DNA of 22,628 nt, taken from the IMG/VR virus record IMGVR_UViG_2861043448_000001. One strand, written 5' to 3'. A program made the translations under genes and the position numbers. The notes beneath the pieces are model-generated. The model saw only the letters and a program-made list of their open reading frames with translations, was not told where the DNA came from and searched no databases. Origin of the DNA: a virus (lineage: Duplodnaviria > Heunggongvirae > Uroviricota > Caudoviricetes). Of the stretch, positions 6,336 to 11,814 are shown in pieces. The first letter of the stretch is position 1; each line of letters opens with the position of its first letter.

Positions 6336-6403
6336 CGAGATTAAAGTGCATTAGTTCAGATGCAAATTGACATTTTGTGGCACAGGGTAGAGCTAGCGTG
6401 GTT

Positions 6404-6427
6404 GTCCGCTTTGTGCCAAGAGCGGAC
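6404..6427 (+). repeat. Palindromic repeat, type H2, copy A (gtccgctttgtgccaagagcggac)
   Basis: 7-bp stem gtccgct/agcggac. Near-identical to the copy at 7620-7643. The flank tttgca...ggggg is also shared with that copy. Confidence 0.8.
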
Positions 6428-6464
6428 TTTGCAAAATGGGGGTTATTTCAATCAAAACGTAACG

Positions 6465-7409
6465 TCACAACCAGCCGACGCTCTCTCGCCATTTATAATT
6501 AGTAACTTTATCATTTTCGCTTATTTTTTTAGATATAGAGCGCGGCTCTCTTCCTAGATACTCAGATATTTCTATCGGGGACAAATCAAAATCAACAAGC
6601 ATGACTCTAAGTTTTTCCATTTCCTTTAAAGTCCAAGGCTTGCCATAATTTTCATAAAGAGATACCTTATGCTCCCTGATAGTTCGCTTTCTCTGAGTTT
6701 CACTTTCCCTCTGAAAAATCTCGCTTTTAAATTGTGAACGGAACTCTTTACAGAAGTTGTTATCAGTTTTTTTGTTATATAGATTGCTAAAAATAAGCTG
6801 GGATGCCGGGTCTAAATCAGGTGTGTTAATAATGAAAACTTTGACCTTTTCCATATAGGGATATTCAATTTTACCCAATATGCTTAATTGCTTTATATTA
6901 AAAAAACCTCTCAAATCAAAAGATTTAATGAGCTTTGATTGGATTACACTTTCAATCCTGCTTGCATTTAAATAACAGTACTTTGCCATTGGAAGGGCCC
7001 ATACTACCAGTTGAGGAATATATTTTTCTAATGCAATGCTCTGCCAATCAGTATCAAAGGTTTGGCTTTTTGCTAGCATGTTTTTCGGCAAATCAGAATA
7101 CATTGTGGTAGATGCCCATATCTTATAATCATTCGCCAAGGCTTGATAGTATTTTGTGTGGTTATGAATTTTATAAGCTGACATGAAGCGATAAACGTCT
7201 TCGTCGTGACCAGCGTCGTAAATTGTTCGATTTCCTCTAAGATAACCGTCGTAATGTTCGGTTATCCTTCTACCTACATTACAACTTACCCCAACGTAAA
7301 CCACACGACTGAAAAGTCCTTTATGGACAATAAGATAAACTCCGCTACAGCCAGATTTCCTGGCCTCTGATAGAGAACCTAAAAATCTCCATTCCATAAT
7401 TAAATCCAT
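6465..7409 (-). CDS. GIY-YIG family nuclease with a C-terminal helix-turn-helix-like domain
   Basis: 314-codon ORF. The N-terminus reads GVYLIV-x9-VVYVGVSCNVGRRITEHY (GIY...YVG...R..H pattern), with a later glutamate in SRIESVIQ. The C-terminus reads PWTLKEMEKLRVML..SPIEISEYLGREPRSISKKI, which looks Myb/HTH-like. The gene is AT-rich. Confidence 0.8.
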   Translation of the reverse strand: MDLIMEWRFLGSLSEARKSGCSGVYLIVHKGLFSRVVYVGVSCNVGRRITEHYDGYLRGNRTIYDAGHDEDVYRFMSAYKIHNHTKYYQALANDYKIWASTTMYSDLPKNMLAKSQTFDTDWQSIALEKYIPQLVVWALPMAKYCYLNASRIESVIQSKLIKSFDLRGFFNIKQLSILGKIEYPYMEKVKVFIINTPDLDPASQLIFSNLYNKKTDNNFCKEFRSQFKSEIFQRESETQRKRTIREHKVSLYENYGKPWTLKEMEKLRVMLVDFDLSPIEISEYLGREPRSISKKISENDKVTNYKWRESVGWL

Positions 7410-7577
7410 AATTATTGCTACTGTTTTTGTTTATCATTATTTTCGTGAAACTTCAACAATTTTATCCAAAAGCTAAGGGCAAAGACTTATATAATTATAC
7501 TTGTCATCGTTAGCGATTATATAGAGTAGTGGCGCTGACCTGCTCCCTGGTGATTCACACAGAATGCTGTTAGTAAT

Positions 7578-7601
7578 GTCCGTTCCTCGCTCTCAGCGGA
7601 C
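7578..7601 (+). repeat. Palindromic repeat, type H1, copy B1 (gtccgttcctcgctctcagcggac)
   Basis: Shares the core tccgtYctcgctc..agcggac with the copy at 11791-11814 (20 of 24 positions) and the copy at 9561-9584 (18 of 24). Confidence 0.75.
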
Positions 7602-7619
7602 CTTCAGCTCAGTGATATC

Positions 7620-7643
7620 GTCCGCTCTGTGCAAAGAGCGGAC
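7620..7643 (+). repeat. Palindromic repeat, type H2, copy B2 (gtccgctctgtgcaaagagcggac)
   Basis: Perfect 9-bp stem with a 6-nt loop. Differs from copy A at two positions. Confidence 0.8.
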
Positions 7644-7956
7644 GTTGGTATGCAAGAGCCCTCCAAAAGTTGATGGTTGGTTTGCAGGGGGGCTTAAAGA
7701 AACTGCACTTATCAAGTTGAAGTTCTGTATTCAGCGAAATCGTAGCACTCTGACGATAAGTAACTCCGGTACTCCGCTCTTCGATGAAGAACCAGAGTAA
7801 TCCCCCCGAAAAACCAGCGCATCAAAATTGGATCTTCAGCGGTAGCTTATCGGCTATCGGAAGTACAGGTGTGGATTCGTGGTGAATTGCTTTGATAATA
7901 AACGATTAATACGGAAAAACGCATTAATCATTTATTAGCTTTTAGTAAACCACAAT

Positions 7957-9306
7957 TTATTCCGTTTTACATATCATAGTAGTCGATTGGAGAATATAGT
8001 TTCTGGGAATGTACTCTTCAAAGTGTTCGTCCTTTTTAAATACATGAACTACATTTGGGAATAATTGATAGTCAACAGGGTGTATAGCGTTTGGATTATG
8101 GTACATGTACATGGCTGTACACCATGGTTCTTGATAGTTAGGGTCACTTACATCGGCTGAAAATGGATGTGGGGCTGCATCCTGATCAGTTTTAACACCA
8201 CTGACGTACACTTTGAATCCACTCGCCTCTACACCTGCAAGAATTCCCATCCGGTTAAACTTAGGTATGGTTGCTTGAGTAGTGAGTAAAACGGCAGAAA
8301 CATAATTATTTTGTTCTGAGCCAAAAAAGTTCGACTTGATACTTCTATTTTCATCTGTATGTCTTTCAATAGAAATGCCTGACTCAATATCAATCCCGTA
8401 CAAATAGCTATGCAAGGCTTCGCTTGAGAAGGCCATGGACATTCTTTTTGAATAATCCTGCATTGCTATGACAAATGGTTTGTTCTTTGTATGGTTGAGT
8501 TCCCAGTAATGAACTTTCTCTGGCTCAGGGCAATGCCGGACTTTTTTTAATAAACTTCTTGCAAACTTAAAAGGCATGACATTTAGAACATGTTTTCTTA
8601 ATTCATCCATCTGTTCATCGTTAATGACTTTTCTTTCAAGAGGGGCTTCTGCTTCAGCAATGCTTACAGCCTCTACAGCAATTTCCACTCCAAATTTAGA
8701 TAGCAGAAAATCTGGTTGATTGTATTCTCTATTCATTTCAAAGTCGAGTTCATAAAATACAGCGTTCAAATATAATTCAAATAACCTTGAATTAAATGCA
8801 TCACTTTGAAAATCCCTTATAAATATTCCATCAGGATCTTTGAACCAGTATGCAAGTTCCTCAAGAACAATATATGCAGGGAAATGAAGAGGGTCTTCGA
8901 GGAGCATTTTTATATAAACATTCCTTTTTTTCGCTGGGACCTTACTCAAGAATAATGAAAAAGGTTTGGTTGATTCATCGCCTTGCATGAATGTACCATT
9001 TTGGTGCTGCGCCAGCATCTTTGGTATGTCATCGTTCAAATTATTAAGCAAGACATCCATTGAATCAAATGAAGCCAAGACGTTTATTGCTCTGAATTTT
9101 TTATCTAAATCCCGACCTAAGACTATTGCGTTAAAATCTTTATCAATATTGCATATGATTATTGTGGATAACAATGTTATCCCATTCCCCTCATATTTAA
9201 ACCAGCGTATCTCCTCAGAAAATGTCTTAAGGTAAGGTGAGCGACCGTAAAAATAAATATCAAATTGTTCTTTGCTGATCTCACTGAAGTGTAATCCTGC
9301 GTTCAT
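7957..9306 (-). CDS. Orphan 449-aa protein; a possible degenerate PD-(D/E)xK-like core; function unknown
   Basis: Long AT-rich ORF with aagga 8 nt upstream of its ATG. The segment FELYLNAVF...NQPDFLLSKFGVEIAVEAVS resembles a helix-E / PD / ExE arrangement but lacks a clear lysine. I recognise no other motif. Confidence 0.75.
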   Translation of the reverse strand: MNAGLHFSEISKEQFDIYFYGRSPYLKTFSEEIRWFKYEGNGITLLSTIIICNIDKDFNAIVLGRDLDKKFRAINVLASFDSMDVLLNNLNDDIPKMLAQHQNGTFMQGDESTKPFSLFLSKVPAKKRNVYIKMLLEDPLHFPAYIVLEELAYWFKDPDGIFIRDFQSDAFNSRLFELYLNAVFYELDFEMNREYNQPDFLLSKFGVEIAVEAVSIAEAEAPLERKVINDEQMDELRKHVLNVMPFKFARSLLKKVRHCPEPEKVHYWELNHTKNKPFVIAMQDYSKRMSMAFSSEALHSYLYGIDIESGISIERHTDENRSIKSNFFGSEQNNYVSAVLLTTQATIPKFNRMGILAGVEASGFKVYVSGVKTDQDAAPHPFSADVSDPNYQEPWCTAMYMYHNPNAIHPVDYQLFPNVVHVFKKDEHFEEYIPRNYILQSTTMICKTE

Positions 9307-9428
9307 ACCAATTCCTTTTCAATGAATAATTGGCCTTTAGGAGTGATTCCCTTTGTCTTTAATTCAGTTCTAACTAGTTCTTTAATCCAATAGCCTAAGC
9401 TCATCATGCAGTTGGATCATAAGACAAC

Positions 9429-9457
9429 GCCCTATAGTGCTCGTGATACTATAGGGC
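9429..9457. repeat. Perfect 10-bp inverted repeat with a 9-nt spacer (gccctatagt-N9-actatagggc)
   Basis: Read directly from the sequence. It lies between the divergent 449-aa gene and the recombinase gene. No T-run follows on either strand. Confidence 0.7.
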
Positions 9458-9560
9458 ATCTGACCACACTGTTAACTGGAGTAACGACTATGGCAGGAAT
9501 ACAGCATAACCAAACTCACCCCAAACTTACATAGCGCTTTCTGGCCGTGAGCATAACAAG

Positions 9561-9584
9561 GTCCACTCCTCGCTCATAAGGGAC
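9561..9584 (+). repeat. Palindromic repeat, type H1, degenerate copy D (gtccactcctcgctcataagggac)
   Basis: Keeps the termini gtcc...ggac and the core tcctcgctc. The palindrome is weakened to 4 bp. Confidence 0.6.
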
Positions 9585-9587
9585 AAC

Positions 9588-9626
9588 CATACTCAAATCT
9601 CCCACATTGCAGGAGATTTGAGTATG
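9588..9626 (+). promoter_or_regulatory. Perfect 15-bp inverted repeat (catactcaaatctcc-N9-ggagatttgagtatg) enclosing the recombinase SD and ATG
   Basis: The right arm contains GGAG (9612-9615) and the ATG at 9624-9626. It could be an RBS-sequestering hairpin in read-through transcripts, or a lox/FRT-style core site. Confidence 0.65.
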
Positions 9627-10226
9627 AACACGTCACCGTGGAACAAAGACCGTATCATAGGCCAAAAAAGACCACTTCAGATATCTCATATCTGGGGTAT
9701 CCGAATCCGACTTGAACTGGAAGGTAAAACTCGCGATTTAGCTCTGTTCAACATGGCCCTGGATAGTAAGCTTCGAGGCTGTGATCTGGTCAAACTCAAA
9801 GTATCTGATGTTGCATATGGTGGCTCTGTTTCAAGCAGAGCAACGGTGTTGCAACAGAAAACCGGTAGCCCTGTTCAATTTGAGATAACCAAAGGGACAA
9901 GAGAAGCTGTTGCTGCATTGATACAGCTTAGCAATTTGCACAGTAAAGACTTCTTGTTTCGGTCTAGGGTCGGAACTAACCAGCACATTTCAACCCGGCA
10001 ATACAACCGAATCTTTCATGGGGGGGTAGAAAAGCTTGGTCTCGAAGATTCGCTTTACAGCACACATTCCATGAGAAGAACAAAACCTTACCTGATCTAC
10101 AAGAAAACCAAGAATCTCCGGGTGATCCAACTTCTGTTGGGTCATAAGAAACTGGAAAGCACAGTCCGTTATCTGGGCATTGAAGTCGATGATGCGTTAG
10201 AGATTTCTGAATCGATTGAAGTCTAA
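9624..10226 (+). CDS. Mini tyrosine recombinase (catalytic domain only, ~200 aa)
   Basis: Catalytic signature occurs in order: DSKLRGCDL (R), LQQKTG (K), HSMRRT (HxxR), LLGHKK (H), VRYLG (Y). The ATG at 9624 sits 8 nt after aggag. The track start at 9618 is a TTG. Confidence 0.85.
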   Translation: MNTSPWNKDRIIGQKRPLQISHIWGIRIRLELEGKTRDLALFNMALDSKLRGCDLVKLKVSDVAYGGSVSSRATVLQQKTGSPVQFEITKGTREAVAALIQLSNLHSKDFLFRSRVGTNQHISTRQYNRIFHGGVEKLGLEDSLYSTHSMRRTKPYLIYKKTKNLRVIQLLLGHKKLESTVRYLGIEVDDALEISESIEV

Positions 10227-10232
10227 GGTTGT

Positions 10233-10254
10233 CAGGGCTGCAACAGCAGCCCTG
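10233..10254 (+). terminator. GC-rich hairpin after the recombinase gene (cagggctgc-aaca-gcagccctg); no T-run
   Basis: 9-bp perfect stem beginning 7 nt after the stop codon. The lack of a U-tract makes intrinsic termination uncertain. Confidence 0.3.
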
Positions 10255-10585
10255 TGCCATAAGCGGAAGTATTTAACAACTATCAGTGTTGTTCAACAGA
10301 TAAAGGGGCACTTGATTTTTTCTGTTCTCAGGAAATGATAAAAGCGCGTCGGTTCAAGCCTGCTTAACGGGAGTTTGTTAATCCTGTTGCCGTGACGTTT
10401 TGACACCATTATGATGGGGAGACACTTAATGTATGAAGGTTCCGCCACTTATACCTGTCCAACAACTGCCTCGGATGTTTCTTTGTATGAATAAGTGGTA
10501 ATGAGTAGTGAATCGCTAACAGTCACCCGAACAATCGGTGCCTGCAATTAATTCTATATTCTAAACGAGGGGGAGATTATTACAC

Positions 10586-11566
10586 ATGAAATTTAAGGAC
10601 AAGAACCTTAAGGCTCTCGCGGAATGTATCATAGGAGATAATAAGGCATTTCTGTATCGTTCAAGCAGTCACATCACTGAATTTTTCCAGGACTGCGGCA
10701 TGGATGTTACTCATGACGGATCCACTCGGTGGAAATGGACGGCCCAGAGGCTTGAAGAACTTCTTTATGAGCCACAGTCAAAGCCACATACTTTGCCGGA
10801 AAGGTTTGTTCATGTGCTCAGAACTTTAATGTTAAAAGAAGATGCAATGGATGACGATCCAGGAAGATTAAAGGCGCTTGAAGAACTGAACAAGCCTTTG
10901 ATGCGGGAAGGCTATGAGGCATTCTATGGTGACGATCGCCTTTTGTATATACGCCATACCGATACCAAAACGGTTTCAGTCAGTAATAACCCTCATCGGC
11001 CCTTAACGCCTCACGAAGTAGAATGCAGAAGGTTACTGACCGCGTTTCTTGATACCTGCTCAGAAGATGAGTTAATAGAAGATATTCTCCTTCCTTTATT
11101 CCGGCAACTTGGTTTTCACCGGATAACAGCAGTGGGACATAAAGATAAAGCGCTGGAATACGGGAAAGACATCTGGATGAAGTTCACACTGCCAACTCAG
11201 CATGTTCTTTATTTCGGCATTCAGGCAAAAAAAGGTAAGTTGGATGCGTCCGGTGCCAGCAAATCTACGAATTCAAACGTGGCAGAAATCTTCAACCAGG
11301 TACTGATGATGCTTGGCCATGAAATATTTGACCCAGAAACAAATAGAAAGGTGCTGGTAGATCATGCCTTTATCGTTGCTGGCGGAGAAATTACTAAACA
11401 GGCGAGGAACTGGCTGGGCGGGAAACTTGATGCCAGCAAAAGAAGCCAGATAATATTTATGGACCGGGAAGACATTCTTAATTTATATACTGTAAGTAAT
11501 GTACCTCTGCCAACAGGTGCTCTCATCTCTGATGATGCCGTTAAGAACGATGATATTCCTTTCTAA
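10586..11566 (+). CDS. Two-domain protein: unknown N-terminal domain plus C-terminal Mrr-like restriction-endonuclease-fold (D...QxK) domain
   Basis: 326-codon ORF with a gagggggag SD. The C-terminal half reads ELIEDILLPLFRQLGFHRITAVGH..EYGKDIWMKF..LYFGIQAKKGK...AFIVAGGEITKQA. This matches the Mrr_cat layout of helix, G-x-D-I, then (Q/E)xK. Confidence 0.75.
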   Translation: MKFKDKNLKALAECIIGDNKAFLYRSSSHITEFFQDCGMDVTHDGSTRWKWTAQRLEELLYEPQSKPHTLPERFVHVLRTLMLKEDAMDDDPGRLKALEELNKPLMREGYEAFYGDDRLLYIRHTDTKTVSVSNNPHRPLTPHEVECRRLLTAFLDTCSEDELIEDILLPLFRQLGFHRITAVGHKDKALEYGKDIWMKFTLPTQHVLYFGIQAKKGKLDASGASKSTNSNVAEIFNQVLMMLGHEIFDPETNRKVLVDHAFIVAGGEITKQARNWLGGKLDASKRSQIIFMDREDILNLYTVSNVPLPTGALISDDAVKNDDIPF

Positions 11567-11790
11567 TCAGAAGTACGTCTTTTTCTGAAAGAATACGTGA
11601 TAGGTAGCCACACCACACCTTTAGTGACCCCTTAATCTGGTAATATAACAGCCCGTATGAATGTCCGCGGCATCGCGGGCTGAAATTTATTAAAAATACT
11701 TATTCATCAAGCTGGAGTAGTTTGCCGAGTAACTGTAAACGCCCAACTTAACCGGACCATTCACTTTTAGATTGCTACCAGCAAACCAAC

Positions 11791-11814
11791 TTCCGTTTCT
11801 CGCTCAAAGCGGAC
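11791..11814 (+). repeat. Palindromic repeat, type H1, copy C (ttccgtttctcgctcaaagcggac)
   Basis: 20 of 24 positions match copy B1. Same orientation. It lies at the right edge of the island. Confidence 0.7.

Follow-up and report, generated by a model that had tools for sequence, protein, structure and literature searches.

A GIY-YIG nuclease fused to a Myb-like domain as a possible single-gene defence cargo of palindrome-bounded slots in a Qin-type prophage

The virus record IMGVR_UViG_2861043448_000001, whose 22,628 nucleotides (nt) are referred to as a whole as the window, is a Qin-type cryptic lambdoid prophage adjoining rspAB/ynfA. On its minus strand, at positions 6465–7409, it carries a gene (the GIY gene) for a protein that joins an enlarged GIY-YIG nuclease module to a C-terminal Myb-like helix-turn-helix (HTH). 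We tentatively favour the reading that this gene encodes a defence nuclease acting as a single-gene system and is carried as exchangeable cargo, a reading that falls a little short of an even chance. A defence role appears the most likely one because the gene has no partner and its 1.2-kb module fills slots, bounded by two classes of palindrome (B and A), that also hold proven or candidate anti-phage genes. The fuller statement, in which the protein is a new single-gene anti-phage nuclease and one cargo of an uncharacterised Enterobacterales cassette-exchange system of the form B-cargo-A, exchanged among plasmids and hotspots of the lambdoid, P2-like and CP4-type kinds, possibly by way of a 201-residue recombinase, is rather doubtful when taken as a whole.

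The gene, the parts of its product and its expression signals are located as follows.

6465–7409, minus strand: GIY-YIG/Myb open reading frame (ORF), ATG to stop, 314 amino acids (aa), a nuclease fused to a Myb-like HTH
6786–7409, minus strand: enlarged GIY-YIG nuclease module, aa 1–208, from the alignment and the AlphaFold2 model
6645–6785, minus strand: helical linker, aa 209–255, with a long helix at 228–251, from the AlphaFold2 model
6504–6644, minus strand: three-helix HTH similar to Myb, SANT and GcrA DNA-binding domains, aa 256–302
7410–7577, minus strand: AT-rich 5′ region of about 170 nt, which moves together with the GIY gene
6461–6482, minus strand: terminator-like stem-loop that overlaps the stop codon and is followed by ACGTTTTGAT

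The ORF is a genuine gene under purifying selection and not a chance ORF, since it has 72 homologues of about 310 aa (in Enterobacterales, Aeromonas, Vibrio/Photobacterium, Pseudoalteromonas, Thalassotalea and Undibacterium) and its ratio of nonsynonymous to synonymous substitution rates (dN/dS) is 0.10–0.17 against 11 homologues; the ratio is 0.46 for one very close pair. All the motifs that an earlier note on this DNA had quoted for the minus-strand ORF of 314 aa are present, namely GVYLIV, VVYVGVS, GRRITEHY, WTLKEMEKL and SPIEISEYLGREPRSISKKI. The second ATG, at 7397, is the start in most homologues. The RefSeq entry for the protein, WP_001678528.1, is labelled 'hypothetical protein', and most of the 72 homologues bear the NCBI name 'GIY-YIG nuclease family protein'. 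Neither a prior description of the GIY/Myb protein family nor a report of phage protection by it was found in the literature, and the family, for which only generic annotation exists, is uncharacterised.

The gene is present in about 240 complete Escherichia coli genomes (about 4%), lineages of the clinical sequence types (ST) ST410 and ST167 among them, and copies that are 93–98% identical occur in Escherichia, Salmonella, Enterobacter, Citrobacter, Pantoea, Serratia and Silvania; four plasmids carry it. No match was found among 50,697 sequenced phage genomes (INPHARED), and the IMG/VR matches are the same Qin-type prophage or a Salmonella integrative element. Some copies are frameshifted (L007 9989–10945 and L048 5509–6448) or truncated (in Klebsiella), and the gene is therefore not kept everywhere; these damaged copies, the proteins P0035, P0042 and P0049 among them, come from a Pantoea metagenome-assembled genome, a metagenome contig and Klebsiella.

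The gene was said to stand alone, and it does so: 129 nt separate it from the convergent DUF977 gene and 547 nt from the next gene on the same strand, and its GC content is 34–36% against 44–52% in the flanks. As to the proposal of its own AT-rich promoter, two perfect TATAAT hexamers lie upstream on the minus strand (7516–7521 and 7494–7499), but a consensus scan of that strand upstream of the gene returned no full sigma-70 site. Expression from a promoter of its own is plausible on these signals.

The GIY-YIG fold that had been read from the motifs is supported. In an alignment of 36 diverse family members, reaching down to 38% identity, Y25, Y38, G40, R48, H52, E153 and N171 are invariant, and these residues make up the full GIY-YIG catalytic set. 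The AlphaFold2 model built on this alignment (predicted local distance difference test, pLDDT, 93.2; predicted template modelling score, pTM, 0.83) consists of strands 23–30 and 34–42, helix 45–57, an insertion of about 75 residues, strand 134–140 and helix 146–164, followed by the long helix 228–251 and a three-helix bundle at 261–302. The GIY and YIG elements lie on adjacent strands at the expected spacing of about 10–13 residues, with G23-V24-Y25 on the first and V37-Y38-V39-G40 on the second; R48 and H52 are within helix 45–57, E153 is within helix 146–164 after β3, and N171 is distal. In structure the domain resembles solved GIY-YIG domains. The Pfam profile PF01541 matches the window protein at E 0.017 (15.8 bits, with a gathering cut-off of 22.6), and 33 of the 36 family members match Pfam GIY-YIG at E ≤ 0.01, the best at 7e-6. 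A Foldseek search of the model against the PDB and viral models (BFVD) gave nothing significant; the top colinear viral matches, themselves non-significant (E 2e-3 to 0.1), are phage intron/homing GIY-YIG endonucleases. The family profile has no match among PDB chain sequences at E ≤ 0.1.

Searched exhaustively with a profile, 1.84 billion cluster representatives yielded only 139 clusters at E ≤ 0.001, so the family is rare. About 50 of these clusters are proteins of 200–230 aa that align to positions 1–208 only, and the enlarged nuclease module is thus a unit of its own. The gene product is predicted with high confidence to be an active, autonomous DNA endonuclease with a DNA-binding tether, its nuclease activity being presumed from the fold and the catalytic residues.

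The module that carries the gene ends at short palindromes, and further copies of these lie to its right.

6404–6427: palindrome B, GTCCGCTTTGTGCCAAGAGCGGAC, left boundary of the GIY module and also of the entire variable slot
7578–7601: palindrome A, GTCCGTTCCTCGCTCTCAGCGGAC, right limit of the GIY module
7620–7643: palindrome B of the next (PD-T7-1) module, 42 nt after A, start to start
9561–9584: degenerate A-type palindrome, GTCCACTCCTCGCTCATAAGGGAC, end of the PD-T7-1 module, just upstream of a short recombinase gene
11791–11814: A-type palindrome, TTCCGTTTCTCGCTCAAAGCGGAC, right limit of the variable slot

Both 24-nt classes share the arms GTCCGCT/AGCGGAC, around a centre of TCGCTC in A and of GTGCC in B. 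The module limits were compared across Salmonella, Enterobacter, Citrobacter, Pantoea, Serratia, Silvania and other E. coli contexts. Homology of the GIY module to loci of other genera ends at 7592–7612, inside A, and at 6402–6412, in B, and the ends are sharp at conserved palindromes in at least 12 such loci. Because the homology spans from inside A to B, the mobile unit measures about 1.2 kb and comprises A, the 5′ region, the ORF, the terminator-like stem and B. On a larger scale, the lambdoid backbone common to other Qin prophages ends at 6428–6432, and homology to the Qin prophage of VE-T2 halts at B and restarts at 11800, the centre of the A-type site at 11791–11814. Since VE-T2 holds two unrelated genes there, the block 6428–11800 constitutes a single variable slot with B and A as its limits.

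The sites follow the same order in all loci examined: B, cargo, A, an 18-nt linker, B, cargo, A. Each of the 15 site pairs that lie close together reads A then B (15/15), and the reverse does not occur (0). This order is seen in Qin-type and P2-like hotspots, in CP4-type islands and in other genera, with L024, L025, L035–L041 and L053 among the loci. The double A-B element is found in 734 of 5,426 complete E. coli genomes (13%), with a median of one copy; it usually occurs once per genome, and a high-copy repeat of the repetitive extragenic palindrome (REP) or bacterial interspersed mosaic element (BIME) kind was rejected on these grounds. Strict pattern scans of IMG/VR for the element gave 0 and 1 matches, too few to be informative.

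Among the distinct copies compared, 40 of B and 32 of A, the 7-nt inverted arms and the 6 nt at the centre show sequence conservation, with inner stem positions often unpaired. No measure of covariation rose above shuffled controls in these copies, and the palindromes have no match in Rfam at E ≤ 1. A folded hairpin, of RNA or of single-stranded DNA, is accordingly unsupported. Because arms and centre are conserved without covariation, A and B look like putative duplex sites recognised by a protein and are not proven hairpins.

A second type of junction is suggested by six loci (L004, L005, L006, L010, L026 and L031), in which the first half of B, up to GGCAC, is joined just past the GIY stop codon to another conserved sequence, about 70 nt long (AGAGCTGCCTGTCAGATTAGGTTTAGATCTGTGCC...CTGAGCTAATACAA), which also adjoins B upstream of yeeP-type GTPase genes.

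Unrelated genes occupy the palindrome-bounded slots. The GIY module itself, 1.21 kb long and with 99.3% nt identity, recurs in a second E. coli slot, flanked by a yeeP-type GTPase gene on one side and by type I restriction-modification (R-M) and DarTG on the other, in 58 genomes, and in STO_Bone2 that second slot is filled instead by a three-gene ParA-family operon (L053 2461–4492). PD-T7-1 forms a palindrome-bounded module of its own, which ends at 7640 and 9585 in another context, and the candidates HEC-08 (E 1e-173) and PDC-S71 (E 1e-218) are further cargo between the same palindromes. A and B sites also bound the cargo of CP4-type islands and of the hotspot that P2-like prophages have between their tail-fibre assembly and tail-sheath genes. 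Within B...A, the Qin prophage of VE-T2 holds genes of 320 and 333 aa (L037 6628–8607), and the P2-like cargo consists of 461-aa, DUF3800, 125-aa and DUF6650 genes (L036 5505–8216; L039 5512–6806). Most such cargo genes of VE-T2, STO_Bone2 and the P2-like hotspot have no PADLOC match and are candidates for unknown defence functions.

The prophage setting agrees with the moron-type position that had been proposed for the gene, which sits in the variable slot between DUF977 and hokD, directly beside a homologue of PD-T7-1. Two neighbouring genes bear on the argument.

7957–9306, minus strand: PD-T7-1 homologue, 449 aa (PADLOC E 7.3e-157)
9618–10226, plus strand: tyrosine recombinase, catalytic domain only, 201–202 aa, WP_023147793.1, with R..K..HxxR..H..Y all present

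PD-T7-1 is a validated single-gene defence system from the screen of Vassallo et al. (PMC9519451). It also occurs without the GIY gene in about 21 other E. coli genomes. An operon or two-gene system of PD-T7-1 and the GIY gene was rejected, the two being found apart and divided by site pairs. The recombinase gene adjoins the degenerate A site and is divergent from both cargo genes. It lies next to the GIY gene in the window, L002, L007 and L024, is often decayed in the latter three, and is absent from the P2 hotspot arrays. The 60 nt upstream of it are conserved in about 600 E. coli genomes, and its relatives are small 'site-specific recombinases' located mid-genome in Streptococcus and Bacillus phages.

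The surrounding prophage runs from int, xis, the gene for an 823-aa exonuclease, ydfD, dicB, an O-like replication gene and DUF977/Ren-like to the GIY gene, and from there through the 449-aa gene, the short integrase, a 326-aa gene, hokD, rem, DUF968, rusA and Q to the tRNA genes, which are those for Ile, Thr and Gly and come after the Q antiterminator gene. The prophage (1–22628, compare L001) is decayed, with a partial holin gene and tail-fibre genes as fragments. The remnant of an HTH regulator gene (about 7815–7895, plus strand), which according to RefSeq lacks its N-terminus, lies in the interval from the A-B element to the 3′ end of PD-T7-1. The 326-aa ORF (10586–11566, plus strand), also within the variable slot, has no PADLOC or PHROGs match, and some genomes have an AlpA-family regulator annotated in the interval that separates it from the recombinase. 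Copies of insertion sequences (IS), IS3 or IS1, break up the slot in some genomes.

With the gene flanked by A and B sites and the short recombinase adjoining it in the window and in L002, L007 and L024, the protein could be a helper of the cargo exchange, one that binds or nicks A/B and stimulates swaps, perhaps together with that recombinase. The conserved arms, the invariant 6-nt centre and the lack of covariation also fit a duplex recognised by a protein. Such a role is nevertheless improbable, and weaker than the homing role considered below, since the gene is missing from most of the genomes that have the sites: 734 of the 5,426 E. coli genomes contain the double A-B element, and only about 240 the GIY gene. 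P2-hotspot and many island arrays likewise have sites without a nearby GIY gene, and distant homologues (Vibrio, Pseudoalteromonas, Pseudomonas, Rugamonas) have no A/B sites.

Homologues recur beside known defence genes, with retrons, a Ppl-like gene, PifA, type I R-M, DarTG and Thoeris among the neighbours. The immediate neighbours are a retron II-A in Pectobacterium, a retron III-A phosphoribosyltransferase together with an HNH enzyme in Enterobacter, and the Ppl-like gene in Serratia. PifA is located near a homologue on a Serratia plasmid, Thoeris and a TIR protein near another in a Salmonella integrative element, and type I R-M near further ones. This siting among known defence genes recurs in about 9 of 26 contexts; the PADLOC summary of 105 neighbours is dominated by redundant type I S-subunit models. 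Genes of integrative and conjugative elements or IS elements border the GIY gene at some loci. Across 22 loci and in further contexts the neighbours are unrelated, with no conserved target gene, and no partner or immunity gene is conserved beside the homologues. The neighbouring defence genes, the interchangeability with defence cargo and the steady purifying selection argue for a beneficial defence function, and the earlier interpretation of the gene as a defence effector is partly supported.

The same loci bear on the main rival, in which the gene is a selfish, free-standing homing-type endonuclease, comparable to T4 Seg/Mob, that would cut slots lacking it (for instance at an unoccupied B/A junction) and spread the 1.2-kb module through repair. 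The statement that no intron or intein context is visible stands, the gene being free-standing in about 26 distinct loci, without intron, intein or host-gene context and never inside another gene. Homologues embedded in homing contexts were not seen in these loci, a check that covers embedded enzymes only and that free-standing homing endonucleases would escape. The C-terminal part had been described as unlike a homing-endonuclease array, and in its elements this is so: Pfam yields no NUMOD family even at E ≤ 10, no zinc-finger elements are present, and TIGR01453 matches at E 0.027 with 14.5 bits, against a cut-off of 56. The gross layout, however, is that of I-TevI/Seg, and this layout, the weak TIGR01453 match and the intron/homing endonucleases as best, though non-significant, colinear viral structure matches all favour a homing enzyme. 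A compact one-gene unit with sharp ends at the palindromes in at least 12 other-genus loci would also be expected of it, as would copies 93–98% identical across seven genera and plasmids, and the decaying copies (frameshifts in L007 and L048, truncated proteins in Klebsiella) point the same way.

We nonetheless regard homing as unlikely. Nuclease-free cargo (PD-T7-1, HEC-08, PDC-S71, the ParA operon) uses the same B...A slots, so the mobility of the modules does not need the GIY gene. Intact A and B palindromes adjoin the gene and recur at other places in its genome, which makes them unlikely cleavage targets; a B-then-A 'empty' junction does not occur among the 15 close site pairs. The gene is absent from the 50,697 phage genomes, with IMG/VR matches confined to the same prophage or island, it has no target-gene association and no NUMOD motifs, its TIGR01453 score is far from the cut-off, and the purifying selection on it is strong and uniform.

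Some single-gene systems work by abortive infection, and the GIY gene is a single gene found in defence islands. It might on that account encode a toxin-like or abortive-infection effector or, alternatively, a domesticated DNA-binding regulator, and not a direct restriction-type nuclease. Domesticated homing endonucleases that serve as regulators are reported (PMC8096241). Both roles are improbable: no antitoxin-like partner is conserved, and a purely regulatory role is disfavoured because every catalytic residue is invariant down to 38% identity.

Tethered cutting near a bound site is how other two-domain GIY-YIG enzymes work. Under the favoured reading of a single-gene defence nuclease, the C-terminal Myb/SANT-like HTH would bind duplex DNA, and the helical linker would position the N-terminal GIY-YIG domain to nick or cut nearby. 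The enzyme would attack DNA of phages or plasmids as these enter the cell, and would leave the host's own DNA alone if it depends on something peculiar to foreign DNA: a modified base, for example, or a given sequence or structure. For a nuclease that has no immunity gene, a modification-dependent (type IV-like) mode is an attractive conjecture. The fold, the invariant catalytic residues, the purifying selection, the limits of the module, the order of the sites and the defence genes nearby are observed; nuclease activity, target, discrimination of self from non-self and defence phenotype are what we infer for this protein.

Several points weigh against this reading. A recognised defence gene lies within 10 kb in only about 9 of 26 distinct contexts, and ordinary housekeeping genes are the neighbours at many loci. 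The protein has no significant PADLOC match and no sequence match to a solved structure, and its two-domain layout fits a homing endonuclease equally. The sequence gives no sign of how a nuclease without an immunity partner spares its host. The assignment of the gene to defence remains guilt by association.

If the protein protects against phage, it would add a compact (0.95-kb) one-protein defence system, and the pairing of an enlarged GIY-YIG module with a Myb/GcrA-like reader would be a new one. Its presence in clinical E. coli of the ST410/ST167 type would then be relevant to phage therapy. The palindrome-bounded slot grammar is a more unusual observation than the gene, and the carrier may matter more than this cargo. 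In several known defence hotspots the ends of the cargo modules coincide exactly with A/B palindromes, which could help to explain how these hotspots exchange their contents and could serve as tags to harvest unknown defence genes, such as the unannotated cargo of VE-T2, STO_Bone2 and the P2-like hotspot. For P2-like phages the slot grammar may in part have been described before, since the title of Nilsson et al. 2004 (Mol Biol Evol 21:1; PMID 12949155) suggests repeats flanking P2 cargo.

Single-gene defence systems built on a GIY-YIG nuclease are known: CMoRE (PMC12923530) and PD-T4-3, PD-lambda-1 and Uzume (bioRxiv 10.1101/2024.10.26.620412). The GIY gene is similar to them in its carriage on mobile elements and in defence islands and in having no methyltransferase or immunity partner, and by analogy with them the protein would act in a partner-less, restriction-like manner. 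A search of PADLOC-DB 2.0 gave no significant match, the best being PDC-S14 (E 0.0075) and UzuA of Uzume (E 0.015), over about 45 residues that cover the GIY motif only; PD-T4-3 and PD-lambda-1 do not match. CMoRE and other solved GIY-YIG enzymes were rejected as homologues, since the family profile matches no PDB chain and the motif is another one, GVYLI here against GIYxY in CMoRE. The nuclease module of about 200 aa, with its insertion of about 75 aa, also sets the protein apart from this group, and its second domain is a small Myb/SANT-like HTH, in contrast to the modification-sensing domain of CMoRE.

With I-TevI and the Seg enzymes the protein shares the succession of N-terminal GIY-YIG domain, linker and C-terminal HTH, together with weak colinear structure matches, and the gene, like theirs, stands by itself as a single gene in a prophage or phage and has expression signals of its own. 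It differs from them in having neither NUMOD nor zinc-finger elements and a TIGR01453 score far under the cut-off, in being absent from sequenced phages and not tied to a conserved target gene, and in occupying slots that elsewhere hold nuclease-free cargo. R.Eco29kI and T4 endonuclease II also have enlarged GIY-YIG cores, at 16–17% identity to the protein. Both differ from it by the extra C-terminal HTH found here, and Eco29kI has a methyltransferase partner whereas the GIY gene has none.

For the carrier, as distinct from the protein, the comparison is with integron gene cassettes and Xer-site (pdif) modules, in which cargo is delimited by short conserved palindromic sites. The A/B system differs from these in having two classes of site in a fixed B-cargo-A order and a cargo orientation that is not fixed. 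Its recombinase is a 201-aa catalytic domain only, often missing or decayed, and its sites lack the covariation of a folded single-stranded form; recombination at them is putative. The likeness lies in the swapping of unrelated cargo in one slot and in the tyrosine recombinase that stands beside some of the arrays.

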